A stretch of 64,000 bases of DNA from a virus (IMGVR_UViG_2541047873_000001), one strand, 5' to 3'. Positions 12,974 through 62,688 are shown, counted from the first letter of the stretch. The notes: a model not told the origin generated them from the letters alone. A program made the numbers and translations.

Positions 12974-12990
12974 TTAATTTTCTAACACAG
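12974..12990. promoter_or_regulatory. Operator-like site (TTAATTTTCTAACACAG)
   Basis: Copy of the dispersed AATTTTCTAACA motif, 14 bp after the stop of the upstream gene. Confidence 0.5.
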
Positions 12991-13159
12991 TGTGTTTTTA
13001 TACACTGTTGATCCGACGGCACGTGATCGAGTAGGATCGCGGTCACTGCTCCGGTAGCGACTGCCAAAAAAAGCAAAAGCCGCTGAGTAGCGGCTTTTGG
13101 GTGTATAAATCCACTGGCATAGATTTATACGGTAGATAGATTTTTCACGGAACTATCTG

Positions 13160-14122
13160 GTGAGTATTTTAAATTCAGTTTCAGTTACTTTCAACACTTC
13201 TGAGTATAAAAACAACACTGAATACCACAAAAAAATCAAAGGTCATCAGTTGAGTTTTTTTGCTCGTCATAGCGGTTTTCTTTCCCCTTCACATAGCGCC
13301 ATTATTGCCGAGTTCGCCAACCTGGCAGGAGCTACCGATGAATACATGATCCGTCGCTCATATGCGGATATGTCCGAGATTACAGGACGCAGTATTTCTA
13401 CTGTGCGCCGGGCATTTGCCGAAGCGACGAAGTGCGGAATGCTTGTTAAGCAGCATCAGGTAGCGAATAACAATGCTCAGGTGTGTAACGTGTACCGGTT
13501 TACAACACAATTTCTCCACTTCATTCATGTAGCAATGGAGATAGGGAGTAAGCAGGGCATCAAATTTGCCAACGCCACAAAACTGGTTAAGCAGTTGATT
13601 TCAAAGGTTCGTTATTTTTTTGAAACTGGGAACCCCCTGTTCAAATTGAACAAGTCCCCCCATGTTCAAAATGAACAGCCAATAGAAAATAAGAGTCACT
13701 CTATAGCCAAAAGAAGAGAAAGATCATGCGCGGTTCAGCCAAAGGCTTCACCAGCAGATAGTTCTCAAGCGGATAATGGGGGGCTGGATAAAAAACCAGT
13801 AATCAGGGAAGAACATACCAACCACTGCCTGGCGGCGGCAAAAGCGAGAGCTGCAAAGCGTCGTTCAGATGAGGGGCACGCAAAACGGCAGGCTCTGTAT
13901 CGTACCGCTGAAAAGCTGGCAAAAAAATTTGCATGGATACGTAGTGCCGCTACAGCAGTGAATAAGCCTAAACAATCCAGTGCCCTGGATTTCTCAATGG
14001 ATTATTCTGGCTCCCAGGGGTGTGCAAACATTGGTGAAGCCTTTGACCTGATGAAACAGCGTGGCTATCGGTCTGAATTTGACCGGGAAGACTGGTCAAT
14101 TCCGGAGGGCTTTCGGGGATGA
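13160..14122 (+). CDS. HTH DNA-binding protein, possibly from a replication or kil module
   Basis: 320 aa; winged-helix-like segment MSEITGRSISTVRRAFAEATKCGMLV; basic C-terminal half; operator sites on both sides. Confidence 0.4.
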   Translation: MSILNSVSVTFNTSEYKNNTEYHKKIKGHQLSFFARHSGFLSPSHSAIIAEFANLAGATDEYMIRRSYADMSEITGRSISTVRRAFAEATKCGMLVKQHQVANNNAQVCNVYRFTTQFLHFIHVAMEIGSKQGIKFANATKLVKQLISKVRYFFETGNPLFKLNKSPHVQNEQPIENKSHSIAKRRERSCAVQPKASPADSSQADNGGLDKKPVIREEHTNHCLAAAKARAAKRRSDEGHAKRQALYRTAEKLAKKFAWIRSAATAVNKPKQSSALDFSMDYSGSQGCANIGEAFDLMKQRGYRSEFDREDWSIPEGFRG

Positions 14123-14177
14123 TGTTGCGATTGACTGTACAATAACCGTGCGGCGGGAATTTCATCGCTCGAAAATG

Positions 14178-14210
14178 TATGTTAGAAAATTAAATTGATG
14201 TTTCTAATCA
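14178..14210. promoter_or_regulatory. Bipartite operator upstream of the icd-ant locus
   Basis: tatgttagaaaatt..N..tttctaatca inverted half-sites; a further weak half-site at 14269-14277. Confidence 0.55.
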
Positions 14211-14284
14211 AGAATGTATGATTTACATTGTCACTAAAAAACAGCATTTGATAAAAATTCTGTTGATCTTTCTAATGTTCAGGC

Positions 14285-14520
14285 TTATATTCATGCCGTC
14301 GTAGCAAATTCTGCGACCAGGTTTGACAGCCTGAATACTTACGCGGACAACCGCACATTTCCGATATTGCGGTATTTTTGTGTCCGTAAAACCACGTTAC
14401 GCCCGAATTATGGTGGGGCGTGATGGGGAGGCTTCGGCCTGCTGGTTTCGTAAGTGCCAGTCTGTCAACCCTGTCACGTCCTGCCACCTGTTTGACAGCG
14501 GGTCGCAGGTTGTTTATCAA
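14285..14520 (+). ncRNA. Candidate C4-like antisense RNA or immI leader (approximate bounds)
   Basis: ORF-free leader before icd with a UUCG-loop hairpin (gaggcttcggcctg) and repeated ttgacag / ctgtcaa complementary elements, resembling the P1 c4-icd-ant layout. Confidence 0.3.
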
Positions 14521-14537
14521 CTTACGAGGCCGTAACT

Positions 14538-14762
14538 ATGGTTAATGCCAATCATTGCTCACGTCCAGAATTCATCTGGCGTTTCCACTCCCTGCAAAAA
14601 CATTGTGATCACTTCGCAATTGCCGCAACTGAAAAAGAAGCCCGTTCTCTGATCCCTGATCAGTATGGCGTTCTCACTGGTCGTTTCTCTACTTCCCCAC
14701 AACCAAACACTAATCCCTGGTATCGCAATATTACCAATCCCGGCATTGCGGAGGCTCACTGA
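14538..14762 (+). CDS. icd: Icd-like cell division inhibitor
   Basis: 74 aa immediately upstream of and overlapping the Rha/Ant gene; paralog of 52369..52584 (EFIWRF..C..H..AATE.EAR motif). Confidence 0.55.
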   Translation: MVNANHCSRPEFIWRFHSLQKHCDHFAIAATEKEARSLIPDQYGVLTGRFSTSPQPNTNPWYRNITNPGIAEAH

Positions 14763-15469
14763 TGGATATCTGCATTCTCGAAAAACTATCAATGACCAGC
14801 ATTGAGATTGCGGAGCTGGTGGGAAGTCAACACTCTGACGTTAAACGTAGTATTGAGCGTATGGTTGCTCGAAGCATTATCCGAAAACCGCCAATGGCTG
14901 TTTTCGAAAAAATCAATAACTTAGGATTGCGTCGTGGCGTTGAGGCTTACGTCTTCGAAGGCGAGCAAGGCAAACGAGACAGCATTATTGTCGTTGCGCA
15001 GCTCTCTCCGGAATTCACCGCCCGGCTGGTGGACCGCTGGCGCGAACTGGAAGAACAAGTACGCCAGCCGTTGACCGAAATAGAGATGATCGCTGCAATG
15101 GCTGCGAATGCAGTTCAGCAGCAAAAGCGGCTTCATGCTGTTGAGTCAAAGGTTAGCCAGGTCGCTGAAACCGTCGAGCAGATCAAGAAAGGCAACATAC
15201 CAGAAGGCTACATTGGCTACCGCCAACTGGCGGCGAAATGCGGCCTGACTGAAGCCAAATGCCGTAACCTGGTCAACGCTTACCGGATCCCCACAGATAC
15301 GCATGAGTTTTTGACGCCAGAGGGGGTATTGTCGCGTCGTACTATTGTGGCCTTATCTCCCTTCATGAATGCCTTTACCCTGATGATGTCGGAGGCTGAA
15401 CACCGAGGAAAACGCTGGTATCACCCAAGGATGGGGCAATTCCAGGTAATCGGTTGGGGAGGCGAGTGA
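14762..15469 (+). CDS. ant: Antirepressor, Rha/Ant family
   Basis: N-terminal TSIEIAELVGSQHSDVKRSIER (Rha-type) and conserved central/C-terminal blocks shared with 52584..53525. Confidence 0.7.
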   Translation: MDICILEKLSMTSIEIAELVGSQHSDVKRSIERMVARSIIRKPPMAVFEKINNLGLRRGVEAYVFEGEQGKRDSIIVVAQLSPEFTARLVDRWRELEEQVRQPLTEIEMIAAMAANAVQQQKRLHAVESKVSQVAETVEQIKKGNIPEGYIGYRQLAAKCGLTEAKCRNLVNAYRIPTDTHEFLTPEGVLSRRTIVALSPFMNAFTLMMSEAEHRGKRWYHPRMGQFQVIGWGGE

Positions 15470-15666: not shown

Positions 15667-15674
15667 AGTGTGAT

Positions 15675-15699
15675 GCCCCGGCTTGGCCGGGGCTTTTTT
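15675..15699 (+). terminator. Rho-independent terminator
   Basis: gccccggcttggccggggc hairpin plus a T6 run, between convergent genes. Confidence 0.65.
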
Positions 15700-16183: not shown

Positions 16184-16320
16184 ATATTTCTCCCGCTCAT
16201 GGGTTAATAAGTAGGCAAACTATGGTGAGTATGTGATTTTGACGGTAGTGTCGTTCATCCCTGAAAATAACATTCTCCATACCCTCTCAAACCGAACCGC
16301 TTAAGGCGGATTTAACGGTT

Positions 16321-23645: not shown

Positions 23646-23906
23646 ATGCGGAAGAATCGTAGGTTTACGATCGACGACTTAAAAGCGTACTCACAAGGGA
23701 AGGGATACGCCCTTGAATACCACCGTTATAAGCGGGTATTTACCCTGCGGCATATAGAAAACCCTTCGAAATGGGGATGGATTTATTTTCCGCACACTGA
23801 CGATAAGCTGGTGGGACTTGTTGATGATTTATCCTATGAAGGATGGATGATTGCTATCGACAAGGCGGTTACGGAAATTAACGAACCTGATAAAATAAAC
23901 CATTAA
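23646..23906 (+). CDS. Hypothetical protein
   Basis: 86 aa, tightly coupled to the upstream ORF. Confidence 0.4.
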   Translation: MRKNRRFTIDDLKAYSQGKGYALEYHRYKRVFTLRHIENPSKWGWIYFPHTDDKLVGLVDDLSYEGWMIAIDKAVTEINEPDKINH

Positions 23907-24080
23907 AAATAACAAGTTGGGTAAATGACATACAATTTACCCGGCTTGTTGACCCGCATCACCATTTACTCTAAAAACAAGTCCGACCTGTTGCATCCGC
24001 CTATCTCTTCAGTAGTATTCCCCTCGGTTTTGATAAAACTAACGCTCTTGTTATTATCGTGTTCATGATTTCAGGAAGTT

Positions 24081-24094
24081 TGTGTTAGAAATTT
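24081..24094. promoter_or_regulatory. Operator-like site (TGTGTTAGAAATTT)
   Basis: Reverse-orientation copy of the dispersed motif, overlapping the start region of the VRR-NUC gene. Confidence 0.5.
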
Positions 24095-24095
24095 G

Positions 24096-24539
24096 ATGCG
24101 AAGACGCAGGCATCATAGTGCGTATTCTGAAATATCCCCGCACGCTGCTGCACTGAGAGAGTTAGAAAGAAATCCTGACTTATTAAAACGGAATTACGAA
24201 CATTACGAACAGGTTCGCGTTCTGGATTGGCTGTATCGCAACATGCGATACGTGTATGAGCACACACACTCAACACCGAACGGCGGCCTGAGAGGCAAAA
24301 GGACAGCCATTAAGATGGTGGCAGAAGGTCAGAAGAAGGGCTATCCGGACCTTTCTATTGACCTTGCTCGTGGTGGGTATCACGGAATGCGCATTGAGAT
24401 GAAGCACGGGAGAAACCGTCTGACTCCCGAACAGCTCGTCTGGATGACTCGCCTCACGGAAGCAGGCTATTACTGCTTTGAGGCGCGCAGTGCCGATGAA
24501 GCCATAAAAGCTATCACGGAATATGTAAATCTTGATTAA
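24096..24539 (+). CDS. VRR-NUC domain nuclease
   Basis: GYPDLSI...GMRIEMKHGRNRLTPEQLVWM matches the VRR-NUC PD-(D/E)xK signature. Confidence 0.6.
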   Translation: MRRRRHHSAYSEISPHAAALRELERNPDLLKRNYEHYEQVRVLDWLYRNMRYVYEHTHSTPNGGLRGKRTAIKMVAEGQKKGYPDLSIDLARGGYHGMRIEMKHGRNRLTPEQLVWMTRLTEAGYYCFEARSADEAIKAITEYVNLD

Positions 24540-24553
24540 ACGGAGAAATCGTT

Positions 24554-24754
24554 TTGCGTTTACTTAACGTGGCTGAACTTATCCCTGCCGGTGCTAACGT
24601 TGTTGCTCGTCGCTGCTCATGGCCTCATTCTTTCTGTATAGAGCTTAAAAAGATGGATGATGGGGCATTAGAAGCCCGAAACATAGTTACCGGCGACAAG
24701 GTATGCATTACCCCGGAAAGCGCGAAAGCCAATGATTGGGAGTTTGTTCATTGA
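24554..24754 (+). CDS. Small DUF2829-like (Tad2-like) protein
   Basis: 66 aa, AELIPAGANVVARRCSW...AKANDWEFV; TTG start with GGAG RBS (GTG at 24569 is an alternative). Confidence 0.4.
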   Translation: MRLLNVAELIPAGANVVARRCSWPHSFCIELKKMDDGALEARNIVTGDKVCITPESAKANDWEFVH

Positions 24755-25062
24755 GCAGAAAACACCACGTAAATCTGACGTTTGCTGATGACGCCGGAAG
24801 AACCAGAAGCATAACCATGAAAGTTGCTTCCAGGAAAGTAACCGCGCCACTTATACGAGAGGCCGTAAGTGAACTTGATATGAGTGAGAATGCAGCTCTG
24901 TTATCGGTAAGCTGGCTGGGGAAAATGACGGATCAGGAATACTCGGATGGTATACCCCACGGTGAGCGGCAGATAGTAAAGCGCGCGTTTAGAATTTCAG
25001 AGGTAGTTGTCGTACTGATAGCTTTGATTTATATGGCATACATGCTACTCCAACACGTCTAA
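24736..25062 (+). CDS. Hypothetical protein with C-terminal TM anchor
   Basis: 108 aa; C-terminal VVVLIALIYMAYMLL hydrophobic helix. Confidence 0.35.
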   Translation: MGVCSLSRKHHVNLTFADDAGRTRSITMKVASRKVTAPLIREAVSELDMSENAALLSVSWLGKMTDQEYSDGIPHGERQIVKRAFRISEVVVVLIALIYMAYMLLQHV

Positions 25063-25073
25063 ACGGTCATAAA

Positions 25074-25097
25074 CCCGCCAGTTGGCGGGTTTTTTTG
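25074..25097 (+). terminator. Rho-independent terminator
   Basis: cccgccagttggcggg hairpin plus a T8 run. Confidence 0.7.
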
Positions 25098-25135
25098 TTG
25101 CCTGAGTCTTTTTATTGAAATTGCATACTAATAAA

Positions 25136-25153
25136 ATATGTTAGAAAACTAAT
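25136..25153. promoter_or_regulatory. Operator-like site (ATGTTAGAAAACT)
   Basis: Motif copy ~20 bp upstream of the 402-aa gene. Confidence 0.45.
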
Positions 25154-25172
25154 TTCAAGAAAGGGAACAAAC

Positions 25173-26381
25173 ATGAGTCAGCAAGTAGAATCATCAAGCC
25201 TGGAGATCATCTCAACCGCAATTGAAACGCTGCGGACACAAATCGCGCTTATACAGAAACGAAATCCGGGCGATGACCTGTCAAAGCGACTGCATGAGAG
25301 CGTCATTGCCACTACAGATAACCTGGTGGCGGAAATCAACCAGCTCCTTGATGATGGGGCAGTTGATTACAATAAGCTGGTGGATCAGTTTGAGGAATAT
25401 CAGCAAGCCGTTAATGATGGCTTGATCCGTTTTTCTCAAGTCACTGGTGTATCAGCGACAGTTGAAAGCCTGGGGGATGCAGTTAATCAATTTGCCGCGA
25501 ATATGCGTAATGAGATCGGCAATCTGGAGGCGCGTCTTGAGCAGGCAAATACACTGCGCAAATCTGCTGAAGTCGATTTGAGTCGTTACAAAAAAGACTA
25601 TCCGCCAAGCCTGACAAAACGACTGGATGTTGCGGAGAAAGATAACCGCACGCTGAAAAGAGAGCGTCGGGAACTAAAAGAGCGTTTAACCAAGCTAAAT
25701 CAGCAATGCGTTGAGTATCAAGGCGAACTCGTCACACTGCGTAAAAAGTTAGCAGCGGCGCAGAGCATTATTGAAACATTGAAACGAGAGTGCTCAGAGC
25801 TTGGTCATGATCTGAATCGCGCCTGTGGCATGGGGCAAAGGCCAGAGACATTCCCGCTAATGTATGACGGAAGAGAAGCTATTGCCTATATCCATGAGTT
25901 TCCGCATGGTCTGGTCGCGGAGACTGGGCAACGTGGCGAAGCGTTGCTGACGGCAAATTACCATCAGCAAATCAGAACCAGCCGCCTGCTGACGATGGAT
26001 GTGATCCCGTCAGTATGGGGAACGCCGCTTTACTACCGAATTCCTGGCTTCGAAACTGACTGGAATACCGACATAGACGAATGTCTGGCAGATAAAATTA
26101 TGGCGTACCTTGAAACGGATTTTCCACGCTTGCATCGCCGGATTATGGACTCTAAGGATGCACCGATCGACGAATTGAAAATGCGTCCAGAGACGTTGGA
26201 GGCAATCAAGCAGACTGAGTTTGATACAGTGTTCAGTGTGGCCTGCATTCCAAGCAGCTTTCATGAAAGCATTCCGTTCATGCAGGGCGATCGCCGTCAG
26301 GAAATAATTGATGCTTGCCGGGTATGGGCGAACGAGTGGGATAAGAAGAACGGTGGAGTTGAAAATCTTTACGGGAAATAA
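25173..26381 (+). CDS. Coiled-coil protein of unknown function, bracketed by operator sites
   Basis: 402 aa; long coiled coil (residues ~100-210) and a globular C-terminus; good RBS. Confidence 0.5.
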   Translation: MSQQVESSSLEIISTAIETLRTQIALIQKRNPGDDLSKRLHESVIATTDNLVAEINQLLDDGAVDYNKLVDQFEEYQQAVNDGLIRFSQVTGVSATVESLGDAVNQFAANMRNEIGNLEARLEQANTLRKSAEVDLSRYKKDYPPSLTKRLDVAEKDNRTLKRERRELKERLTKLNQQCVEYQGELVTLRKKLAAAQSIIETLKRECSELGHDLNRACGMGQRPETFPLMYDGREAIAYIHEFPHGLVAETGQRGEALLTANYHQQIRTSRLLTMDVIPSVWGTPLYYRIPGFETDWNTDIDECLADKIMAYLETDFPRLHRRIMDSKDAPIDELKMRPETLEAIKQTEFDTVFSVACIPSSFHESIPFMQGDRRQEIIDACRVWANEWDKKNGGVENLYGK

Positions 26382-26415
26382 TGTGTTAGAAAATTAAAAT
26401 TGTTTTTCTAACATA
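26382..26415. promoter_or_regulatory. Palindromic operator pair
   Basis: tgtgttagaaaattaaaattgtttttctaacata: perfect inverted half-sites gttagaaaa / ttttctaac. Confidence 0.6.
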
Positions 26416-26532
26416 TTGATTATGTAGTTAACTTAACATAGAATTTTTCGTGCTGGTGGGGAGCTTCCCATGTCGCTTGCGGGTTTGATAGTCACTTCAT
26501 TGTCTTTCCCCACCAGCATCAAACAATTTTAA

Positions 26533-26546
26533 GTGTTAGAAAGTAA
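26533..26546. promoter_or_regulatory. Operator-like half-site (GTGTTAGAAAGT)
   Basis: Motif copy 120 bp downstream of the palindromic pair. Confidence 0.4.
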
Positions 26547-27726: not shown

Positions 27727-27803
27727 GATGGTGTAGCTCAGTAGGATAGAGCAGCAGCCTTCTAAGCTGTCGGTCGGTGGTTCGAATCCACCCACCATCG
27801 CCA
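27727..27803 (+). tRNA. tRNA-Arg (anticodon UCU)
   Basis: Hand-folded cloverleaf: acceptor gatggtg/caccatc, D arm gctc/gagc, anticodon loop cuUCUaa, T loop ggtgg-ttcgaat-ccacc, encoded CCA. Confidence 0.8.
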
Positions 27804-27808
27804 ATTTA

Positions 27809-27895
27809 GGGGAGTTAGTCCGTAGGGGTAGCGGGGTAGACTGTAAATCTACTGTCATTGCGACTCGGATGGTTCGACTCCATCACTCCCCACCA
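27809..27895 (+). tRNA. tRNA-Tyr (anticodon GUA), long variable arm
   Basis: Acceptor ggggagt/actcccc, anticodon arm gtaga-cuGUAaa-tctac, long variable arm, T arm gatgg-ttcgact-ccatc, CCA; resembles E. coli tRNA-Tyr. Confidence 0.7.
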
Positions 27896-27899
27896 AATT

Positions 27900-27975
27900 G
27901 CCGGTTTAGCTCAGTTGGTAGAGCGCCTGCCTTGTAAGCAGGATGTCAGCGGTTCGAGTCCGTTAACCGGCACCA
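27900..27975 (+). tRNA. tRNA-Thr (anticodon UGU)
   Basis: Acceptor gccggtt/aaccggc, D loop agctcagttggtagagc, anticodon arm cctgc-cuUGUaa-gcagg, T loop ttcgagt, CCA. Confidence 0.85.
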
Positions 27976-27983
27976 ACACAACA

Positions 27984-28056
27984 GGTAAGGGTATTTTGCG
28001 ACGTCGGAGATCGCCGAGCTTGGCAGAGGGTTCGAATCCCTACGAAGTACCCTTAC
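27984..28056 (+). other. tRNA-like element or pseudo-tRNA (T arm plus 10-bp terminal stem; no anticodon arm, no CCA)
   Basis: ggtaagggta...tacccttacc terminal helix encloses a gggttcgaatccc T-arm-like hairpin; too short for a complete tRNA. Confidence 0.25.
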
Positions 28057-28163
28057 CGTTGTGATGAATGCACAGGCTGATGTGCCGCAACTACAGTAGT
28101 GCGCGCTTTGCGGGGCTTGCTACAACCCTGTGTCGGAGTTCAGCACCGACCATCACAATCACT

Positions 28164-28250
28164 GGAGAGTAGGGAGCATGGTGCTCAAGCGGTCTTGAAA
28201 ACCGTCCCATTGCGCAAGCGATGATGGTTCGATTCCATTACTCTCCGCCA
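28164..28250 (+). tRNA. tRNA-Ser (anticodon UGA), type II
   Basis: Acceptor ggagagt/actctcc, anticodon arm gcggt-cuUGAaa-accgt as in E. coli tRNA-Ser(UGA), long variable arm, T loop ttcgatt, CCA. Confidence 0.7.
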
Positions 28251-28679
28251 GCGCAACGTTAAGAGTATTTGGCTAATTAAGCGAATGCCGGAAGCAGAAC
28301 CGGATCACCAAATGCGTACAGGCGTCATCGCCGCCCAGTCAGCCAAATGCTCTTACCATTGCGGTGAATGCGGCTAAGCGCACGCGGAACAGTTAAAACA
28401 GTAAAGGTGGTCTTTTTACTGGCGTAACGAGAATCCATAAGTGATCCGGCGTTAATTGTTAACTGGTTAACGTCACCGGGAGGCACCCGGCACCGCAACC
28501 TAACAGCAATGGCGTTTTGTCTTAAAAGGTGGCTGCAAGTGATGGATTTTTGGGCGTTTGCCGATAAAAACCCGGAGTGGACATTATTGTTTCTGCTGGT
28601 GGTTGCATACGGGGTAGAGCAAGCGGCAAAAGCCTTACGCGGTTCTGGCAAAAAGCGTAAGCGTAATTAACAGTAATCT

Positions 28680-28755
28680 GGCCCTTTAGCTCAGTGGTTA
28701 GAGCGGGCGACTCATAATCGCACGGTCACCGGTTCAAGTCCGGTAGGGGCCACCA
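28680..28755 (+). tRNA. tRNA with CAU anticodon, most like tRNA-Ile2 (AUA-decoding); elongator Met not excluded
   Basis: Near-complete resemblance to E. coli ileX-type tRNA as I recall it (GGCCCUUUAGCUCAGUGGUUAGAGC...CUCAUAAUCGC...GGUUCAAGUCC...GGGGCCACCA). Confidence 0.8.
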
Positions 28756-30163: not shown

Positions 30164-30194
30164 TGTTAGCAAATTGATATTAATTTTCTAATAC
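30163..30194. promoter_or_regulatory. Bipartite operator upstream of the lpa-like/pac operon
   Basis: gtgttagcaaattgatattaattttctaata inverted half-sites. Confidence 0.5.
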
Positions 30195-30270
30195 ATCATG
30201 TTTTTGACAGTCTTCTCAGTATTAACAAGCTGATTATCATCCCCTCGGTCTTTTTCTATCCGGGGGATAA

Positions 30271-30663
30271 ATGGAGCAAATCAGTAGCGCCGAAATAGCG
30301 GATATCATGATCAGGGCTAACTGCTATCTGACGGTCACCGAAATCACCAGCCGTGCAAAAGCACAATATCCTCACCTTCATGTGTCGCGCGTAAACGTAA
30401 ATAACATCATACGTTTTTTTGTTCGTTCCAGTCGTGCCATTTGCGAAATAGACGACCGCGTATACCCCCGGAAATATTGGTTACATGGCCTGAATGGATA
30501 CCAGTTCAAGGTGCGCGGGCGCACTCCTGAATTCGGTCGGCTGTTGGTGAAAAACACCAACCGAAAGATAGAAGCTCAATTACGAAAGGAGCAGCGTCAG
30601 TTGGTGGCGATGACTAACCAGCTATGGAACGCCGCTGTGAAAAAACGTGAGGCTTCCCTATGA
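30271..30663 (+). CDS. Putative late-gene activator (Lpa-like, positional)
   Basis: 130-aa gene between an operator and pacA, as lpa sits in P1 (from memory); no motif support. Confidence 0.35.
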   Translation: MEQISSAEIADIMIRANCYLTVTEITSRAKAQYPHLHVSRVNVNNIIRFFVRSSRAICEIDDRVYPRKYWLHGLNGYQFKVRGRTPEFGRLLVKNTNRKIEAQLRKEQRQLVAMTNQLWNAAVKKREASL

Positions 30664-32024
30664 CGTTAATTAACTGGGAAGCGCATCGAGCTAAGTTCCT
30701 GGAGTTAAGAGAAGAAACCGGGATCACCATAAAAGAATATTGCGAGCAGCATGACCTCAGCTTTAACACCGCCAGAAAGCATCTCAATATGAAAAAAAAT
30801 GAGGTTAAGGCGAAAGCTAAGGCTGCCGGGAAAAGTACAAAACAGCGCGCAAAAAGCAGCGCCACCGGCTCAAAAAAAGAGCAAAAAAAGGCTGATAAAA
30901 GCACAGAATTTACAAAAACTGACAAATCGTTAGCTGGTGGACGGTTCCGCGCCATGCCGCAAAAACAAAATGCGGATCACAAAGAAAAGCCAAGTAATAA
31001 CAACAAGATACACAAGGATGTGAAGGGATCATTTTGTGATGAAATGGGAGAAATGATCCCTAAAAGCAGCGAAAAAGCCCAACGAAACAAGGGATCATTG
31101 CAAATGATCCCTGACTCATCAGCTCAAAGCGCCACTTTGCCTGCCACCAACGTCGCCCGTGAGATGATGAAGAACGGCGCGACTGAACATTTACGACTTG
31201 CGATACAGATGGCGCAGGAACGAGCAATTCAGTATCAGGCCATCGTTGACCAGGAAGCGGAGCGACTACAGGAAGAGATTGACGCCCTCGGCGATACACA
31301 GCCAGAGGGGATGCACCCAGGGCAGCGTCTTCTCGGCCTAATAAGCGATGCGGCCTACTACATGAATGACTTTATCAGTAGGTTGGCAGCCATCTACCAG
31401 ACCGAGCAGAAGCTACGCCAGGGGGATGAAAAACTTGCGCAGGGCGCGCGTCAGCAGGCATTCAGGGAGGCTGAGGCCAGAGAAAAACTGGCGATTGCCC
31501 GCCTGCAAGCCGAGCAGCGTGGCAAAGAGATTGAGTATCGCATTGGCGCTGACGCACGCGCCGCCAGGGTTATCGCCGCCGCTATACGTATGCGTGAGCG
31601 CGAGGAGCTGGACGATATAGGCGTAGCTGAATATATCGAGCGGCAGGGCGTCAGTGTCCCGGCTATCCTGGCGGCACGAGCGGCAAAAGCGATCTCACTT
31701 CTGGAGCCTCCGGTTTCTGACGTTAACGATGTTGATGATGAGCAACTGGATAAAGAGGCGAAGCAGTTTGCCGAGCAACAAGCTGGACTCCCACAATGGC
31801 TTGCACAACGCCGGGCTGAAGTAGCGAAAATCGTTGATAGGCTTGGGATGGGGGATTACGACCGGAACGGAGAACGTAAAGCCGGTGAATTTGAGGCCAA
31901 TGATGAAGACCTGAATATAGACCCTTCCGCCACGGCTGATATCTACGGTGATTATGACGCGGGGGATACCGGTTTTGATGCTGTAGATGACGAGATTGCG
32001 ATAGACCAGCCGGAGGATGACTAA
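30660..32024 (+). CDS. pacA: Pacase small subunit PacA
   Basis: 454 aa with N-terminal HTH-like region, lysine-rich linker, acidic C-terminus; directly upstream of the large terminase; contains the GATC-hexamer cluster. Confidence 0.6.
   Translation: MTLINWEAHRAKFLELREETGITIKEYCEQHDLSFNTARKHLNMKKNEVKAKAKAAGKSTKQRAKSSATGSKKEQKKADKSTEFTKTDKSLAGGRFRAMPQKQNADHKEKPSNNNKIHKDVKGSFCDEMGEMIPKSSEKAQRNKGSLQMIPDSSAQSATLPATNVAREMMKNGATEHLRLAIQMAQERAIQYQAIVDQEAERLQEEIDALGDTQPEGMHPGQRLLGLISDAAYYMNDFISRLAAIYQTEQKLRQGDEKLAQGARQQAFREAEAREKLAIARLQAEQRGKEIEYRIGADARAARVIAAAIRMREREELDDIGVAEYIERQGVSVPAILAARAAKAISLLEPPVSDVNDVDDEQLDKEAKQFAEQQAGLPQWLAQRRAEVAKIVDRLGMGDYDRNGERKAGEFEANDEDLNIDPSATADIYGDYDAGDTGFDAVDDEIAIDQPEDD
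30970..31112. other. Candidate pac site: cluster of five Dam (GATC) hexamers inside pacA
   Basis: GATC at 30975, 31027, 31055, 31093 and 31106, arranged as GGGATCATT / AATGATCCC inverted units; P1 pac is a hexamer cluster of this kind inside pacA. Confidence 0.5.
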
Positions 32025-33569: not shown

Positions 33570-34607
33570 TTACCAGAGTTTTGCCGCGTACATCGTTTGT
33601 GTGAATGTGTACCCATAGCGTTCTTCAACGCTTTTACCGTATTTTTTCCTGGCTTCAGTAAGGCGGATGCCTGTCAGGTCATCGCCGGAGGCAATCATAA
33701 CTTCCAGTAGTTCCAGGTCCATTTTATCCAGCCTTGCCATTGCATCTTTAGCCTCTTGAATTTTCCGGCTAACGATCTGGTGTATGGCTGGATCGGCTTC
33801 GGCCAGCATTTTATCTGATTTGTTTTTTAAACTCTGATTGCGGATATCAATGTTTCTCAGGATATATGACTTCACGACATAGCTTGGCTGCTGCTTTTCC
33901 AGATCACGAACCCGATAAAGGTCAAATTCGCCGAGAAGTCCGCACGGAAGCGGTTTAATGCCAGTGTAAATGGTAAGGGTGCGGCGCTCACCAACGTTGT
34001 TAACAACGGGAATCTCTGTGTTTGCTTTTTTTGCAAAGATCAGCGCACCGTGCGTACCCACTCTGAAGCGTGAAAGTCCATTGTTGCCCTCGATATTGGT
34101 GGTAATCACCACATCGGTATAACCTTCTTTTCTTGCGCGGTATACCTCGCCCTCACGTTCAGCGGCGAAGAATCTGCGTTCTTCTTCAAGCGCACCGACA
34201 ACCTGTGAAAATATCCTGTTTTTCATGCTTTTCTTTATAGTTTTATCGTATTTTTTCAACAGGTCTTCGCGCGTAAATGTTCTCGTTGTGGTTGCGCTTT
34301 GCATAACGATATGCGTACTCTGATTAGTATCCTCAACAATGAATGGGATCGGTAAATAAACCGACTCAACAATGTTTGAGGCTTTGTCATCATCCTTGCG
34401 ACACAGATCAACAAAGGCTTTCCATTCGGCTACGCATTTTTCAGCTTCTTCTAATACAGCCGGATCATGTGTTAATGCAACATGGCGAAATTCCTCGCCA
34501 ACATAACTGGTATCATGGAAAACAGAGTTTGCGACCACCAGCTCTTTCCACCGTTCAGCGGTTTGCAGGAACCGTTTGTACTCATTCTCGATCGACTTCT
34601 TACTCAT
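33570..34607 (-). CDS. Candidate C1-type immunity repressor (positional inference only)
   Basis: 345 aa (ATG at 34607, MSKKSIENEY; the ORF-track N-terminal extension crosses operator sites). Divergent from the recombinase gene, with operator copies in its 5' region; sits between pacB and the lox-like site where c1 lies in P1. Confidence 0.35.
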   Translation of the reverse strand: MSKKSIENEYKRFLQTAERWKELVVANSVFHDTSYVGEEFRHVALTHDPAVLEEAEKCVAEWKAFVDLCRKDDDKASNIVESVYLPIPFIVEDTNQSTHIVMQSATTTRTFTREDLLKKYDKTIKKSMKNRIFSQVVGALEEERRFFAAEREGEVYRARKEGYTDVVITTNIEGNNGLSRFRVGTHGALIFAKKANTEIPVVNNVGERRTLTIYTGIKPLPCGLLGEFDLYRVRDLEKQQPSYVVKSYILRNIDIRNQSLKNKSDKMLAEADPAIHQIVSRKIQEAKDAMARLDKMDLELLEVMIASGDDLTGIRLTEARKKYGKSVEERYGYTFTQTMYAAKLW

Positions 34608-34623
34608 TATTCCTACTCGATTT

Positions 34624-34637
34624 AGTTTTCTAACATA
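34624..34637. promoter_or_regulatory. Operator-like site (AGTTTTCTAACATA)
   Basis: Motif copy 17 bp upstream of the candidate repressor start. Confidence 0.5.
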
Positions 34638-34710
34638 AAAGTCCTGTGACAAATTTATGCCGAATAACAAGGTGAGTAAAGGATAAAACCGCTTTTTTTT
34701 GATTGTTCCT

Positions 34711-34722
34711 ATTAGAAAATGT
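34711..34722. promoter_or_regulatory. Weak operator-like half-site (ATTAGAAAATGT)
   Basis: One-mismatch variant of the motif in the repressor/recombinase intergenic region. Confidence 0.3.
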
Positions 34723-34802
34723 AACCAGGAGCGGCTACCGCATGGCTGACGGATTTGCGAAGTGATCTGGTCGGTGTTTTTTTGGGAAAAAGTCCCGATT
34801 TC

Positions 34803-34834
34803 TAACTTTAAATAATTGGCATTATTTAAAGTTA
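34803..34834. other. rox-type recombination site (14-bp inverted arms, 4-bp spacer)
   Basis: taactttaaataat-tggc-attatttaaagtta is the reverse complement of the rox sequence TAACTTTAAATAATGCCAATTATTTAAAGTTA as I recall it; 150 bp upstream of the Cre-like gene. Confidence 0.85.
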
Positions 34835-34986
34835 GGCTATAATCTCCAGTAAACAGGCAGTATTGACAAGGATGAAAAATCATGCCTCGAATCAAAGGCT
34901 TGAATTTTGAAAATTAACTTATAACTACCCTGTCAGTTTTCTATTTTTCACGTAGCGTTATCTGTATATAGAGGTTTAATAGTTTC

Positions 34987-36016: not shown

Positions 36017-36030
36017 TTAATTTTCTAACA
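36017..36030. promoter_or_regulatory. Operator-like site (AATTAATTTTCTAACA)
   Basis: Motif copy immediately after the recombinase stop. Confidence 0.45.
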
Positions 36031-45856: not shown

Positions 45857-45888
45857 ATGTTAGAAAATTAAAATCAATATTCTAACAC
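45857..45888. promoter_or_regulatory. Bipartite operator
   Basis: atgttagaaaattaaaatcaatattctaaca inverted half-sites, intergenic. Confidence 0.55.
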
Positions 45889-50860: not shown

Positions 50861-50904
50861 CATGACCTCCTGATATAGCGTCTGAAAAAAAGTATCTTCA
50901 TTTT

Positions 50905-50938
50905 GTGTTAGAAAATCAATTTTGATTTTCTAACACAT
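50905..50938. promoter_or_regulatory. 34-bp palindromic operator between divergent operons
   Basis: tgtgttagaaaatcaa-tt-ttgattttctaacaca: perfect 16-bp inverted repeat. Confidence 0.65.
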
Positions 50939-50980
50939 TTGATCAACCATAGCGGCGATGTAGACAAACCGGGTATTTCT

Positions 50981-51556
50981 ATGAAGCAAAGCTATTGGGA
51001 GAAACAGACACAAAAAGCCCTGCAAAAACTGGCTGATCCGAAATGGCGGGAGGAACAAAGGGCAAAGCGTCTTCAGCAAGCTCAACGCCAGCAGCAGCGT
51101 GCGCGAGAAAAAGCCGCATCGCCTGAATATCGGCAAAAGAAAATTGAAAAAGCGAAGCAATATGAACAGCGAAGAAAAGAGAAGGCCGCTTCTGCTCCTG
51201 TCAAAAAAACTCGCGCGTCACGCGGCCTGAAAGGCAGAACACTCACAGCAGATGAGCGCCGGATACAAACTGCCATCGGTGCTCTCCCCTGCATTGCCTG
51301 CCATATGCACGGACAGCATAGCCCTGTGGTATCCCTGCACCACATCTTCGGAAGAACAGCAGAGAACGCGCATAAATACGTCCTCCCTTTGTGTAAATGG
51401 CACCATCAACACGCAGCGCCAGCAGAGATCCGCGAGCAATACCCCTGGTTGGTTCCTGTTCATGCTGATGGAAAAATAGGCGGCAAAGCAGATTTCAGGC
51501 GGCACAATGCTGATGAAATGACGTTGTATCAGATGGTGACTGAATTAATAAATTAA
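50981..51556 (+). CDS. Ref-like HNH-type nuclease (recombination enhancement function-like)
   Basis: Basic N-terminus, then His/Cys cluster CIACHMHGQHSPVVSLHHIFG...PLCKWHH; sits next to an operator as ref does in P1. Start is uncertain (50939 or 50981). Confidence 0.45.
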   Translation: MKQSYWEKQTQKALQKLADPKWREEQRAKRLQQAQRQQQRAREKAASPEYRQKKIEKAKQYEQRRKEKAASAPVKKTRASRGLKGRTLTADERRIQTAIGALPCIACHMHGQHSPVVSLHHIFGRTAENAHKYVLPLCKWHHQHAAPAEIREQYPWLVPVHADGKIGGKADFRRHNADEMTLYQMVTELIN

Positions 51557-51568
51557 TTTTCTAACATT
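51551..51568. promoter_or_regulatory. Operator-like site (AATTAATTTTCTAACATT)
   Basis: Motif copy immediately after the ref-like stop. Confidence 0.45.
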
Positions 51569-51887
51569 TTAAGTTGAATTATGAGATCCACCGTTGTACA
51601 TTCACAACCGATTGGTACACCGGTCAACTTTTTGAGACAAACCGTTTGGTTTTTCGTATGATTGCCGCCGCCATACCAATGGCGGTGCAATATAGGTGGC
51701 TGAAAAGCCCCCGTTGACTCACGGTGTTCCAGCCTTTATTGCGCCGCCACCAGACCGTGGAACAGTCGATGGCGGCTCCGAAAGCAAGGAGTCACTACAC
51801 TATGAACAGCTACTGTCTTTTCCCATCACTCGTTGTCCGCCACTCACGCGATAATCTGCATTCTTTACTCGCGCTGGGGGTGTCAAA

Positions 51888-52055: not shown

Positions 52056-52160
52056 GAAAACACACAGTTGCGCCCTGGCATTATCGTGGGGTATATTTCT
52101 ACGGCACCTTAGAAAAACGGGTGCCGGGATTGGAACCCCGGATAATGCAAAAGGCGACAC

Positions 52161-52184
52161 AGACGCCGAAAGCGTCTTTTTTTG
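52161..52184 (+). terminator. Rho-independent terminator
   Basis: agacgccgaaagcgtct hairpin plus a T7 run. Confidence 0.6.
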
Positions 52185-52199
52185 TGTCATGCCATCGCA

Positions 52200-52345
52200 C
52201 AGCCATGCGTAGCGTTTAGCTCAGAGATCAATGGTAGTGCTGGCTGGGCTGCCGAAAGGCAGGCCGGTTCCCTTTTGCGCCGGTAGTTCCAACCCAGTCA
52301 GTGCTACCGCCATTGAGATTGGAACCTCACGCGGTAGCTCCTTAA
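52200..52345 (+). ncRNA. Candidate C4-like antisense RNA or immI leader, second copy (approximate bounds)
   Basis: GAAA-loop hairpin ggctgccgaaaggcagcc-like and elements complementary to the icd RBS region (ggaggctgcc); same architecture as 14285..14520. Confidence 0.3.
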
Positions 52346-52368
52346 ATTAGCAAAAGGAGGCTGCCAAT

Positions 52369-52584
52369 ATGGCTACTATCCCTACCCCAACTCATTCTGA
52401 ATTTATCTGGCGTTTCTATTCCTGCCAAAAACACCTCTATATCTGCGTAATGGCTGCTACCGAAGCAGAGGCGCGCTCATACCTTCCCGAAGAACCCTGT
52501 ATTTTTGCTGCTCGCTTCACTCTTGATGCGATGGAGATCCTCAATTACTGGAATCTGCCGATGAACTGCGTGGAGGTGCACTGA
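52369..52584 (+). CDS. icd: Icd-like cell division inhibitor, second copy
   Basis: 71 aa, paralog of 14538..14762; overlaps the start of the second Ant gene. Confidence 0.55.
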   Translation: MATIPTPTHSEFIWRFYSCQKHLYICVMAATEAEARSYLPEEPCIFAARFTLDAMEILNYWNLPMNCVEVH

Positions 52585-53525
52585 TGAATCTGTCCATCTC
52601 TCAAAAAGCGACAATGACCAGCATTGAGATCGCGGAACTGGTGGGAAGTCGTCACTCTGATGTTAAACGCAGCATCGAAAGACTTGTTGCTAAAGGAGTT
52701 ATCCAACATACGCCATTGGCTACAGTTGAGAATAATCAATCACTTAGCCCTAATAAATACACAAAAGCCTATTTCTTCGAAGGCGAACAAGGCAAGCGCG
52801 ATAGTATTATCGTCGTCGCGCAGCTCTCTCCGGAATTCACCGCCCGGCTGGTGGACCGCTGGCGCGAACTGGAGAATGTCAGGGGACCGTTAAAATCAAA
52901 AGCCGAAATCCTGGCTGAAATGGCGCAAATGCATCTTGAGCATGAACGCAGGATCAACGCCGTAAATGCCCAGGTAGCCGAGGTATCGGCACAAGTGTCC
53001 AGGGTCACCGAAACACTTGAGCAGATCAAGAAAGGCAATATTCCAGAAGGCTACATTGGCTATCGCCAGTTGGCGGCAAAATGCGGCCTGACTGAAGCCA
53101 AATGCCGCAACCTGGTCAACGCTTACCGGATACCCACTGATACGCATGAGTTTTTAACTCCCGACGGTTTGCTTGCGCGACGCTCCATTGTGGCCCTGGC
53201 CCCCTTCCGGAAAGCCTTTAAGCAGGTTATGTCGGAGGCAGAACCACGTAACAAACGCTGGTATCATCCCAGGATGGGGCTATTTCAGGCCATTCACCAT
53301 CCTGTGCCTGAAAGTCCAAAGGCAAACCTGTCGTTGCATACCGCCAGAGAGAAGATTAAAACAGGGTATGCAACCGTATGCCGTCGAGCATCCTGGCCTG
53401 AAAGTGTCTGGGTATGGCCCGAAAGAGGCTCACGGAAAAACTGGCGCACCATTCGCGACGGCAAGATCTGTGCGATTGATTTACAGCCAGAAGATGTAGC
53501 AGCGACCGACTGGATTGTTAGTTAA
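52584..53525 (+). CDS. ant: Antirepressor (Rha/Ant family) fused to a C-terminal DUF2829-like module
   Basis: Rha-type N-terminus; 56-bp block identical to the first ant; C-terminus TVCRRASWPESVWVWP...AATDWIVS. Confidence 0.7.
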   Translation: MNLSISQKATMTSIEIAELVGSRHSDVKRSIERLVAKGVIQHTPLATVENNQSLSPNKYTKAYFFEGEQGKRDSIIVVAQLSPEFTARLVDRWRELENVRGPLKSKAEILAEMAQMHLEHERRINAVNAQVAEVSAQVSRVTETLEQIKKGNIPEGYIGYRQLAAKCGLTEAKCRNLVNAYRIPTDTHEFLTPDGLLARRSIVALAPFRKAFKQVMSEAEPRNKRWYHPRMGLFQAIHHPVPESPKANLSLHTAREKIKTGYATVCRRASWPESVWVWPERGSRKNWRTIRDGKICAIDLQPEDVAATDWIVS

Positions 53526-55934: not shown

Positions 55935-56265
55935 TCAACTCAGTAGCTTTGTTAACTCCCTTAATACCAGGTAGAAGAGTAACAAAAATACTAACGCCAG
56001 TATTTGCGTGGTCAACGAGGCGTTCATAAACAGAACAATTAGCTTTAACAATTCGAGAATAACGTCCATGTCATTCACACTATTTAATTTTTAATCTACA
56101 GCCAGCAAACAATGAAGCTGGCCCCCGCATAAAGATTAATGAAAGTCACTTGTCACCAGTGAGGGGATTTATGAACCACATCCCCCTGAACTGGTGGACT
56201 GTCTATTTCTCGCATTTCACACCCTGCATACAGTTCCCCCCAGGTTATGACTGTGAGGAACTGTT

Positions 56266-60218: not shown

Positions 60219-60982
60219 CATCCAACAAAACTCTCCTGTCCCGCATTGGCGAGTGGCAGACAACGCGTACTGGAAAATTCCAGACAACTGGTCTGGAAAG
60301 AGTGGATAACGCTTTTGCTACGCTAATCAGCGACATTTTTTCTGACGTAACGCTGGTGGAACCAGCAAAAGAAGAAAGGCGCTTTGCATCATTCCTGAGT
60401 CGCCCACCAGCGGAGCGTGTTTATGTTGCCCGTTTTGATAACGCGGTCGAGTTCCTTAAAGCGGTTCGCCGTGCTAATGCCGGGCAAGGGAGAAAGCCAG
60501 AGAATCCGAACATTAATCGCGATGCGCTCCCTCTGATTAATATCTCGCGCTCAATGGATATCAGCTATATCAACAATGACCAGCAGATAGACCGCAAAAG
60601 CTGTGATCACTTCTGCGAACCTGACAGCGGTATGCCTTTAGTAGCCCTGGAATACACCCAGGCAAATCTGACGTATGACGTTACGTTAATGGCGACGGAT
60701 AAGGCGACCATGAGTCTGATGTGTAATTCGCTAGGAGCACGTCTTCGCTTGATGGCAGGAACGCAGTTTGAAGCAACAACCCCGCTGGTACGAGTACCCG
60801 TCCCGCTAATTTGCGCGGTTCAGGATGCTAAAGACATCAGTTTTACTGATGTTTCAGCCCCAATTGGGGAAGAGCGTATTTATGCTGCACAAACGGCAAT
60901 TAGTGTTATAGCAGACGTGATCACCGCCTGGGAGCTGGACGCGAAACGAATTATTACTGAAACCTCTCTGAGAATGGGGTAA
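60215..60982 (+). CDS. Hypothetical protein, possibly part of a baseplate module
   Basis: 255 aa, coupled to neighbours. Confidence 0.35.
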   Translation: MTSNKTLLSRIGEWQTTRTGKFQTTGLERVDNAFATLISDIFSDVTLVEPAKEERRFASFLSRPPAERVYVARFDNAVEFLKAVRRANAGQGRKPENPNINRDALPLINISRSMDISYINNDQQIDRKSCDHFCEPDSGMPLVALEYTQANLTYDVTLMATDKATMSLMCNSLGARLRLMAGTQFEATTPLVRVPVPLICAVQDAKDISFTDVSAPIGEERIYAAQTAISVIADVITAWELDAKRIITETSLRMG

Positions 60983-60985
60983 GCC

Positions 60986-61966
60986 ATGTCCCAGGAGCTA
61001 CAGCAATACTTTCTACAGTCCATTACCATCAACGGAAACAAAGTGCCCAGGGAGTGGATATTCACTGCCGTATATGTGGAAAAGGCAAACCTGCGAGCAC
61101 CATTGCTGAAACTGGAAATTCACGACATTACCGGCACCATAATTGATGACTGGAAAACAAAATACGGCGCAGCACTGGTTGCAGAGATGGGAGATCCACA
61201 AGGCAATTCAGGCACGTTTAAAACAACTTTTTTCGTAACATCTGCGGTGCTGGCTGGTGATGTCATCACGGTCATTGCAGTCAGTGAAGACGTTCGGATA
61301 TTTAAGATCCCCGCTATACGGGCTAACCTGCATACAAATAAAACGCCTGATACCATTTTCAAGACGTATACCGGTACACTGAAAATCGCCTCCAGCGCAT
61401 TGAAACGAAGCTGTACGTACCATCTTTCCGCCGGGGAAAAACCCTCCAAAATGCTATCTGAAATGGCCCGCGATAAAGGCGCTTTATGCTGGGCCTGCCG
61501 TGGTCAGTTTAACTTTTATACATTAGCTGACCTTATGAAAGCCAAACCATCATTCACCTATGAAGGGAACAACCCCAGGGCGGAATACACGATTTCAAAA
61601 ATGAGGCTTATACAGCAAGAGTATGCCGTTACGGCAAATACTCAGTATCGATTTACCGGCTATTCAATGACTGAAGGCTATGTCGAATATGGCGATAGCT
61701 CACTTCCAATACGCTATATATCCGATCCGGATATGGAAACTCTGCGCAATATGCAATTGTCGCTCGTACCCAAAATGGATATTGAGGTCGCGGGTAATCC
61801 CGACATCACGCCGGGAATGGTTATTGAGATCCTCGTGTATCGTTACGACCAGGAAAATAAGCTGGACGAATCGTTGCCTCGTAAGCTGTTGGTGAAAAAC
61901 GTAGCCCATTTTGAGGACCGGATCGGCTATACAACACGAATGATATTAGGAGTACCCAACCAGTGA
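60986..61966 (+). CDS. Putative baseplate or tail protein
   Basis: 326 aa directly upstream of the gpV-like spike gene. Confidence 0.35.
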   Translation: MSQELQQYFLQSITINGNKVPREWIFTAVYVEKANLRAPLLKLEIHDITGTIIDDWKTKYGAALVAEMGDPQGNSGTFKTTFFVTSAVLAGDVITVIAVSEDVRIFKIPAIRANLHTNKTPDTIFKTYTGTLKIASSALKRSCTYHLSAGEKPSKMLSEMARDKGALCWACRGQFNFYTLADLMKAKPSFTYEGNNPRAEYTISKMRLIQQEYAVTANTQYRFTGYSMTEGYVEYGDSSLPIRYISDPDMETLRNMQLSLVPKMDIEVAGNPDITPGMVIEILVYRYDQENKLDESLPRKLLVKNVAHFEDRIGYTTRMILGVPNQ

Positions 61967-62640
61967 AACGCAGAGCGCAAATCGTAGGGACCAAACACCC
62001 TGCCGGACTTATGCGAGCGCAGGTCCGCATACTGCCTGACTGGAACGGTGTACCGGATGAAGACCTCCCATGGGCAGAGTATCAAATGCCTATCGGTAAC
62101 GCCTTTACACCTACAGTCAGCGGCGATTTAGTCTGGGTCGAATTTCCTTATCTGGATGCTAAAGGCAGGATAGACACGCGCCGACCTTTAATCGTTGGTG
62201 CGGCGCAGGATGCCCCAGGAGGCGTACCAAATGTGCCTCCGGAAGCCTCCGGACAAGGAAGTGGATGGTCGCCAGAAGAAGTTGATGGTGCCCCTGCCCG
62301 CCCCCAGTTTTCGGCGACTGAAGATTTTGTTATTCACCGAAACAATATCCTTGAGGTCAGAACGGCTGGCGGTGGCTATGAAATAGCAAACACCGCCGCA
62401 GGATCAAGGATAGGGATGAACGAATCCGGCCAGATTTACATAATCGGCCCGGCGAATATAGTGCTTAATGCTGGAGGTGAGGTTAACGTCAAATCAAGCA
62501 GCAAAACCAATGTATCCTCAGATGGAGACGTTAATGTAAAAGGCAGCAATGTAACCGTCGCAGCTGATGGTGATATAGCCCTGAAAGCTGGTGGCGCGCT
62601 AAAAGCAACAGCGAGCAATTTCTCCTTTGTGAAGGGATAG
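61963..62640 (+). CDS. Baseplate hub/spike protein (gpV / gp5-like)
   Basis: N-terminal OB-fold-like RILPDWNGVP...GDLVWVEF...RPLIVG and Gly-rich beta-helical C-terminus. Confidence 0.5.
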   Translation: MKRRAQIVGTKHPAGLMRAQVRILPDWNGVPDEDLPWAEYQMPIGNAFTPTVSGDLVWVEFPYLDAKGRIDTRRPLIVGAAQDAPGGVPNVPPEASGQGSGWSPEEVDGAPARPQFSATEDFVIHRNNILEVRTAGGGYEIANTAAGSRIGMNESGQIYIIGPANIVLNAGGEVNVKSSSKTNVSSDGDVNVKGSNVTVAADGDIALKAGGALKATASNFSFVKG

Positions 62641-62654
62641 CAAAATGCAAAACT

Positions 62655-62688
62655 GTATTAGATAATTGAGTTTTATTTTCTAACACAG
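62655..62688. promoter_or_regulatory. Bipartite operator upstream of rdgC
   Basis: gtattagataattgagttttattttctaacacag, with a degenerate left half-site. Confidence 0.5.

Follow-up and report, generated by a model that had tools for sequence, protein, structure and literature searches.

P1-like phage-plasmids are common in clinical Escherichia coli and Salmonella and carry resistance genes, and their mutual exclusion depends on the specificity of the C1 repressor for its operators together with the C4/Ant modules. In P1 itself, 22 C1 operators have been reported, with the 17-bp asymmetric consensus ATTGCTCTAATAAATTT; most of them are single, and a few are bivalent and inverted (PMC8546580). 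No operators are annotated in the GenBank record of Escherichia phage D6 or in the related plasmids examined, and the searchable literature yielded no description of a D6-type operator, an earlier publication being possible, with the D6 genome paper outside the scope of that search; among the matches listed by a full-text search for the motif string, all papers were unrelated. In the older literature, P1 and D6 are described as heteroimmune. Here we analyse a family of dispersed motifs in a 64,000-nucleotide stretch of viral DNA, IMGVR_UViG_2541047873_000001 (the window, meaning the whole of that stretch). Sequence comparison places the element among the phage-plasmids of the P1 family, as a D6-like member: it is syntenic with D6 (MF356679), with 89.5% nucleotide identity over 88% of a 24.9-kb query, and matches E. 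coli plasmids such as NZ_LR890273.1 and NZ_CP104667.1 at about 99% identity. The motif very probably serves as operator for the C1 repressor encoded by the element itself.

The motif has the core (A)ATTTTCTAACA(Y)A preceded by an AT-rich, AAATTA-like 5' flank, and the single sites show it running into that stretch. Exact copies of ATTTTCTAACA number nine in the window against 0.06 expected, and 18 sites are found when up to one mismatch is allowed, against 1.8 expected, a count that none of 100 shuffles reached. The 8.8 kb of non-coding sequence alone holds 17 sites, where a first-order Markov model trained solely on that sequence predicts 0.33 and 300 simulations gave at most 3. Non-coding sequence makes up only 13.7% of the window, yet it holds all 18 sites with up to one mismatch (P ~3e-16), a count that takes the c1 start to be at 34607, the c1 frame staying open upstream. 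In total, the window has 14 loci with about 20 half-sites, arranged as eight single asymmetric sites and six inverted pairs (Table 1), which are dispersed and do not cluster in the manner of iterons or centromeres. A weak extra match at 58529, inside a gene, is probably due to chance. The closest relatives have an additional strong operator beyond the bounds of the window, with two small genes on one side and the major capsid protein gene on the other (NZ_LR890273.1 at about 78844, which is 10845 of related locus L014; D6 at 54207). This likely brings the whole element to about 15 loci with some 21 half-sites.

An earlier note on this DNA had listed these sites as mostly intergenic operators, several of them in inverted pairs. 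Every one is there, to within 1-5 bp, none of those within one mismatch falls in a gene, and six pair loci are borne out. That note had also named beforehand the outcome that would speak against it, a motif frequency no higher than AT-rich intergenic composition predicts, and the non-coding counts given above run the other way. Two structures described as perfect need to be redrawn. The 34-bp palindrome exists, but it spans 50904-50937 and consists of two 16-nt arms, perfectly complementary, on either side of a non-palindromic TT, and the pair at 26382-26415 is present, but its 14-nt arms are 93% complementary, so that it is imperfect. The site near 34711 is weak, as had been said.

The P1-like scatter that the earlier note proposed is seen in the positions themselves, since sites occupy the positional equivalents of OrepL, Oc4, Orlf, Olpa, Oc1, Oref, Omat, Odmt, OpmgR, O26, and Obanab. 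The P1 operator consensus given there was correct: P1 operators read ATTGCTCTAATAAATTT, with the word ATTGCTCTAAT, and have a TCTAA core in common with the window motif. Nevertheless, the two motifs do not recognize each other in reciprocal matrix scans. Nothing in the window scores above 13 bits with the P1 operator matrix, whereas P1 itself has 24 matches of at least 12 bits, and with the window operator matrix P1 has no match above 12.6 bits. The absence of good cross-matches agrees with the proposed non-P1 specificity, and it makes heteroimmunity to P1 a reasonable expectation at the level of C1.

Within the D6 lineage, by comparison, the motif is shared. D6 carries 15 strong sites (at least 19 bits) at homologous loci, and the core is better conserved than its surroundings: between the window and D6, 189 of 220 core positions are the same, compared with 1305 of 1728 in the surrounding 60 bp (Fisher p 2e-4), and for a more distant relative (L007) the corresponding figures are 162/187 and 981/1398 (p 5e-7). 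Since the element is D6-like and carries D6's motif at D6's places, its C1 operator specificity should be that of D6 rather than a new one.

The candidate repressor, which had been placed at 33570..34607, proves to be a true though distant homologue of P1 C1. The two proteins are 21% identical over 241 amino acids (BLASTP, E 1e-7), collinear from the N-terminus, both match phrog_1678 (6e-159 and 3e-140), and the Pfam family PF27008 (Phage_P7_repressor_C1) is recorded on close homologues of the window protein. In addition, c1 adjoins pacAB in the window, as in P1. The window C1 is not an equivalog of P1 C1, scoring 24 bits against the NCBIfam model NF041318 with its cut-off of 500, and it has no match in the Pfam library scanned. 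Its identity to D6 C1 is 80%. The C1 family as a whole forms 89 clusters at 50% identity among 1.84 billion proteins and falls into two length classes, short P1-like proteins of about 250-290 amino acids and long D6-like proteins of about 345-380, with residues ~5-245 common to both. Enrichment, intergenic placement, positional homology with P1, conservation, and the presence of a C1 homologue thus all support a C1-like immunity regulon with non-P1 specificity.

We infer that C1 binds these sites and that its binding blocks RNA polymerase. In the plasmid-prophage state, C1 made by the prophage would occupy the ~14 loci of the window and would block the promoters that the sites overlap or abut, after the model established for P1 (PMC8546580). 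Its targets would be repL, the two c4-icd-ant modules, lpa, ref, hrdC/dmt, pmgS, the tRNA/tci operon, the dut-isaA operon, and c1. Silencing of repL, lpa, and the two antirepressor modules would prevent both lytic replication and Lpa-dependent late transcription, and the sites before c1 would allow autoregulation. A lysogen would be immune to phages with the same operator word, and since that word is unlike the P1 operator, C1-level immunity would be common to D6-type elements and would not extend to P1 or P7.

Table 1. Candidate operators, promoter-like sites, and genes of the window. P1 equivalents are taken from the C1 operators annotated in the P1 record; the gene map is drawn from D6 and P1 annotation, Rfam, ARAGORN, and open reading frames (ORFs).
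Feature	Position	Strand	Context	Counterparts in D6, L007, and P1
Single operator	12977..12987	+	exact 11-mer; between pro (stop 12960) and repL (start 13160)	D6 22467; P1 OrepL/Op53
Inverted pair, right half degenerate	14180..14209		after repL, ~75 bp before c4-a1b1 of first c4-icd-ant module	20/22 core bases same in D6; P1 Orlf/Oc4
Promoter-like TTGATG-16-TATGAT	14195-14222		overlaps 14180 pair; predicted c4 promoter	
Promoter-like site	24030-24057		upstream of 24083 operator	
Single operator	24083..24093	-	1 mismatch; abuts start of pmgM-like gene	conserved in D6 and L007; P1 has O26/Oppp around pmgL-pmgM
Promoter-like TTGAAA-16-TATGTT	25115-25142		pmgS; terminator-like hairpin ahead at 25071-25092	
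Single operator	25139..25149	-	24 bp upstream of pmgS, over predicted -10 (25137-25142)	11/11 same in D6; P1 OpmgRa/b
Inverted pair	26384..26413		just after pmgS; abuts promoter-like site facing tRNA/tciA operon	right half (26403) not conserved in D6; position resembles P1 bivalent Obanab, ahead of tRNA-tciABC-ban operon
Promoter-like TTGATT-17-TAGAAT	26416-26444		tRNA operon; -35 at 26416	
Single operator	26534..26544	-	1 mismatch; ~90 bp downstream of 26384 pair	11/11 same in D6
Inverted pair	30164..30193		upstream of lpa (start 30271); TTGACA at 30203	P1 Olpa/Op94
Single operator	34625..34635	+	18 bp upstream of c1 start codon	11/11 same in D6; P1 Oc1a-e, upstream of c1
Weak operator-like site	34710..34720	-	ATTTTCTAATA, 12.4 bits; farther upstream of c1	9/11 same in D6; P1 Oc1a-e, upstream of c1
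Single operator	36020..36030	+	exact; 5 bp after dre (Cre analogue), before orf117-dut-isaA operon	conserved in D6 (89948) and L007; compare P1 Ossb, before ssb-isaA operon
Inverted pair	45858..45887		between ppp and pdcB-like gene, both on - strand	paired likewise in D6 (80709/80728) and L007 (12602/12621)
Promoter-like TTGATT-17-TATTTT	45877-45849	-	overlaps 45858 pair	
Near-perfect inverted pair	50906..50935		between ref and divergent early operon	P1 Oref, upstream of ref
Single operator	51556..51566	+	exact; starts at ref stop codon, upstream of second isrK/C4-icd-ant module	P1 Omat likewise overlaps ref stop
Promoter-like TTGAAT-17-TACATT	51574-51602		near 51556 operator	
Inverted pair, left half degenerate	62656..62685		upstream of hrdC and methylase genes; 20-nt arms, 90% complementary	paired in D6 (64116/64135) and L007 (3513/3532); P1 Odmt/Op68
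prt-pro	10263-12960			
repL	13160-14122			
First c4-a1b1/C4 RNA with icd-ant	14285-15469		c4-a1b1 14285-14337, C4 RNA 14406-14491; followed by darB	
pmgM and pmgS	24093-26381			
Five tRNAs	27727-28755			
lpa-pacA-pacB	30271-33532			
c1	33570-34607	-	345 amino acids, predicted master repressor	
dre	34987-36015		followed by early operon including ppp and pdcB	
ref	50939-51556			
Second isrK/C4 with icd-ant module	52104-53525		isrK 52104-52182, C4 52227-52314; followed by mat and tail genes	
hrdC	from 62691			

The six inverted pairs (half-sites starting at 14180/14199, 26384/26403, 30164/30183, 45858/45877, 50906/50925, and 62656/62675) are built in the same way. The copy on the - strand always comes first and the start-to-start offset is invariably 19 bp, giving the form TGTTAGAAAAT-N8-ATTTTCTAACA, in which the cores, TTAGA-N16-TCTAA, are 21 bp apart, about two helical turns, and lie on the same face of the helix. 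The degenerate halves are the right one at 14199 (TGTTTCTAATC) and the left one at 62656 (ATTATCTAATA). In the Obanab and Oc1ab pairs of P1, in contrast, the arrangement is TCTAA-N8-TTAGA, with cores 13 bp apart, so that the window pairs may be oriented opposite to the P1 bivalent operators if TCTAA is the homologous core. Under an alternative alignment, in which the specific 11-mer and the shared AT-rich centre are matched to ATTGCTCTAAT+AAATTT of P1, the polarity may be the same in both, with composite sites of 28 and 30 bp. The extra C-terminal helices of long C1 proteins were considered as the cause of the everted pairs and rejected as unsupported, because a Pantoea element, too, has a long C1 but palindromes spaced as in P1 (TCTAA-N8-TTAGA), unlike the window pairs.

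Beyond D6, the word follows C1 over a considerable range of divergence. Elements whose C1 is 66%, 50%, 48%, or 43% identical to that of the window, found in plasmids and metagenomic contigs, keep TTTTCTAACA, whereas the Leclercia pZ96-1_2 and Pantoea pEuc3 elements (C1 ~30%) have no TTTTCTAACA sites and carry RATTCTAAGG (10 sites against 2.6 expected) or AAATCTAAG(A/G) instead. These other motifs stand upstream of c1, after the recombinase gene (dre), at ref, and upstream of rdgC or lpa, and the c1-dre-pacAB region of both elements is syntenic with the window. The plasmid pK91 (L006) was left out of the comparison as a mere phage fragment inside a resistance plasmid. The TCTAA core is common to all C1 classes compared, P1 included, and the bases on either side differ: ATTT and CA in the D6-type class, AAAA and GA in the Pantoea class, TAAT and GG in the Leclercia class, and TTGC and TA in the P1 class.

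Other explanations of the motif have to be set against this evidence. One may argue that it is the recognition element of Lpa, as the D6-type version of the -22 box of P1 late promoters. Several of those promoters have a partly symmetrical box, the morphogenetic genes pmgS and pmgM carry the motif, and the window has only one clear P1-type late promoter (at 56151), so that the late word of D6-type elements is otherwise unaccounted for. However, the genes that have the motif in front of them include lpa itself, c1, repL, the two antirepressor modules, ref, and hrdC/dmt, all with early or lysogenic roles, and the late operons examined (lydA-darA, prt-pro, 26-25, and 7-24-6-5) have no copy upstream. 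The pmgR/S and pmgL/M genes of P1 also have C1 operators, and the motif has TCTAA in common with those operators and no likeness to the P1 late box AAGTGACTT, all of which leaves an Lpa site very improbable. A site for another protein of the element or the host, whether a second repressor or a nucleoid, partition, or replication protein, is also distinctly unlikely. The sites are indeed AT-rich, and because all proteins diverge together, a motif that changes between elements is no pointer to C1 in particular. Against this stand the locus-by-locus match to the annotated C1 operators of P1, the common TCTAA core, and the dispersal of the sites, which are not clustered like iterons or centromeres; moreover, the site of a host protein would not change among E. 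coli, Leclercia, and Pantoea elements at unchanged phage loci and would be expected in P1, yet the motif is absent there.

It is likewise hard to believe that the pairs are RNA hairpins that terminate or stabilize transcripts after stop codons, or copies of a small mobile repeat, even though four pairs start 1-16 bp after a stop codon and the pairs as RNA fold at -10 to -20 kcal/mol (z-scores -2.6 to -6.3). Eight loci are single-copy and incapable of forming hairpins, the stems are AU-rich with no U tract after them, and the conserved unit is the 11-mer, as D6 has lost the 26403 half of one pair and kept the other half. The sites are also free of the target duplications and extended common flanks that would mark a mobile repeat.

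While recognition by C1 remains the most likely explanation of the motif, several observations weigh against it or against too close an analogy with P1. Promoter-like sigma-70 matches around the sites are no commoner than in shuffled sequence, and for this reason the overlaps of promoters and operators in Table 1 are suggestive only. The motif change across classes is not specific to C1, because every other protein of the ~30%-C1 elements has diverged as well, and the orientation of the pairs relative to the bivalent operators of P1 depends on the choice of motif alignment. Furthermore, the strong allelic divergence of C1 is unexplained by operator specificity. Discrete C1 alleles occur in otherwise similar D6-like plasmids; among the 152 plasmids with a C1 match, 6 have the window type (at least 99% identity), 96 the D6 type (~80%), and 26 a 66% type. 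The operator core is nevertheless the same in all, so that three alleles, 66-80% identical, go with one motif. This divergence is probably driven by something other than DNA specificity, and escape from antirepressors is a speculation in that direction. Finally, no homologue of either Lxc or Coi was detected in the window, in difference from P1, although small, fast-evolving analogues could escape a similarity search. No coi-like ORF lies between c1 and dre, the 86-amino-acid ORF at the lxc position (23646-23906, directly after ulx) has no detectable similarity to P1 Lxc, and the absence of Lxc from D6-like plasmids has been reported (PMC6799933); thus, the circuit likely differs from that of P1. 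The ORF at 23646-23906 belongs to phrog_6844, a PHROG of unknown function, and P1 has its C1 corepressor gene lxc at that position.

How C1 might read such a site is suggested by its predicted fold. We know of no DNA-binding motif recognised in C1, and the window protein has no sequence match in the PDB, either as a single sequence or as a profile. An AlphaFold2 model built from a nine-sequence alignment (predicted local distance difference test, pLDDT, 83; predicted template modelling score, pTM, 0.52) has an alpha/beta body of residues ~1-240 followed by long C-terminal helices. Foldseek returned four matches to it with E of at most 1e-3, all of them Tus (best E 7e-7, probability 1.0, template modelling score 0.28-0.31), while a search of BFVD with C1 gave no match and hhalign gave C1 and E. 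coli Tus a probability of 0.2%, with no sequence or profile similarity. The match to Tus is plausible, given a model of medium confidence. Tus acts as a monomer, clamping one long asymmetric site, and P1 C1 has been described as behaving in this way. It is possible, if on balance somewhat doubtful, that P1-like C1 proteins have a Tus fold and act as monomers, each clamping one long asymmetric site with a TCTAA core, that the immunity class is set by a few flanking bases, and that in the D6 lineage the pairs have been rebuilt as everted, two-turn TTAGA-N16-TCTAA sites, unlike the overlapping sites of P1. If true, C1 proteins of this family would form a structural class of phage repressor for which we found no description in the searchable literature, with a fold kinship to a replication-fork barrier and a readable specificity code. 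The possible Tus-like fold is a structural lead for a classic repressor that has no solved structure.

Other features of the element may be noted beside these subjects. The c1 frame (- strand, 34607-34895) continues without a stop for about 92 codons ahead of the accepted ATG, across both c1-proximal operators; this extension is probably not translated, because the alignment with the C1 of P1 and D6 begins at 34607. The strongest sigma-70-like promoter of the 24-36 kb region (TTGGCA-16-TATAAT, 11/12, 34816-34843, + strand) lies upstream of dre, between c1 and dre, where D6 has the rox recombination site. Two separate ImmI-type antisense modules, at 14285-14491 and 52104-52314, each lie downstream of an operator, and the second consists of an isrK-like RNA and a C4 RNA before a second icd and an antirepressor of the Rha/KilA type. 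The product of lpa matches the PHROG for Lpa-like activators. The sole clear P1-type late promoter of the window (56133-56151, - strand, AAGTGACTTTCATTAATCT, with a box of the AAGTGACTT type) is kept in D6 at 71096; the other late operons of the window have no obvious P1-type -22 box, and a D6-type late box was not definable from their upstream regions, so that the D6-type Lpa may read a different word from P1 Lpa. The tRNA cluster at 27727-28755, downstream of the 26384-26413 pair, encodes Arg-TCT, Tyr-GTA, Thr-TGT, Ser-TGA, and Met-CAT, compared with the three tRNAs (Ser, Thr, and Asn) annotated there in D6. The Chi sequence GCTGGTGG occurs 45 times between 14815 and 63576 of the window, against 1.5 expected, with 30 copies on the + strand and 15 on the - strand and none in the first 14.8 kb, and the related loci L007 and L008 are rich in Chi as well.

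Systems of this kind are familiar from textbook accounts of P1, and the phage group of the element was already known; the possible novelty lies in the D6-type operator word, in its regulon map, and in how the C1 classes compare. The word allows immunity groups to be predicted from sequence, being common to C1 homologues 43-100% identical, and it allows the repressed regulon to be annotated and orthogonal C1-operator pairs to be designed for P1-based tools. The cross-class comparison, in turn, yields the hypothesis of an invariant TCTAA core with class-specific flanking bases.

In summary, the system resembles the ImmC region of P1 and P7 in its homologous repressor, in its dispersed intergenic operators, and in the genes these control (repL, c4-icd-ant, lpa, ref, dmt, pmgR/S, and c1), and the roughly 21 half-sites of the whole element come close to the 22 operators of P1 (PMC8546580). 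It differs in the operator word, ATTTTCTAACA in the window and ATTGCTCTAAT in P1, in having six inverted pairs within 64 kb where P1 has two (Obanab and Oc1ab), in a C1 that is 62 amino acids longer, with an extra helical C-terminal region, and in two C4 antirepressor modules where P1 has one. The likeness to Tus-Ter would be one of fold and not of function, as Tus arrests replication forks whereas C1 represses transcription. A closer counterpart is D6, which has the Dre/rox recombinase, two icd-ant modules, a tRNA cluster, and the motif at the same loci, and from which the window differs in that the 26403, 50925, and 30164 loci are bivalent in the window and monovalent or degenerate in D6.

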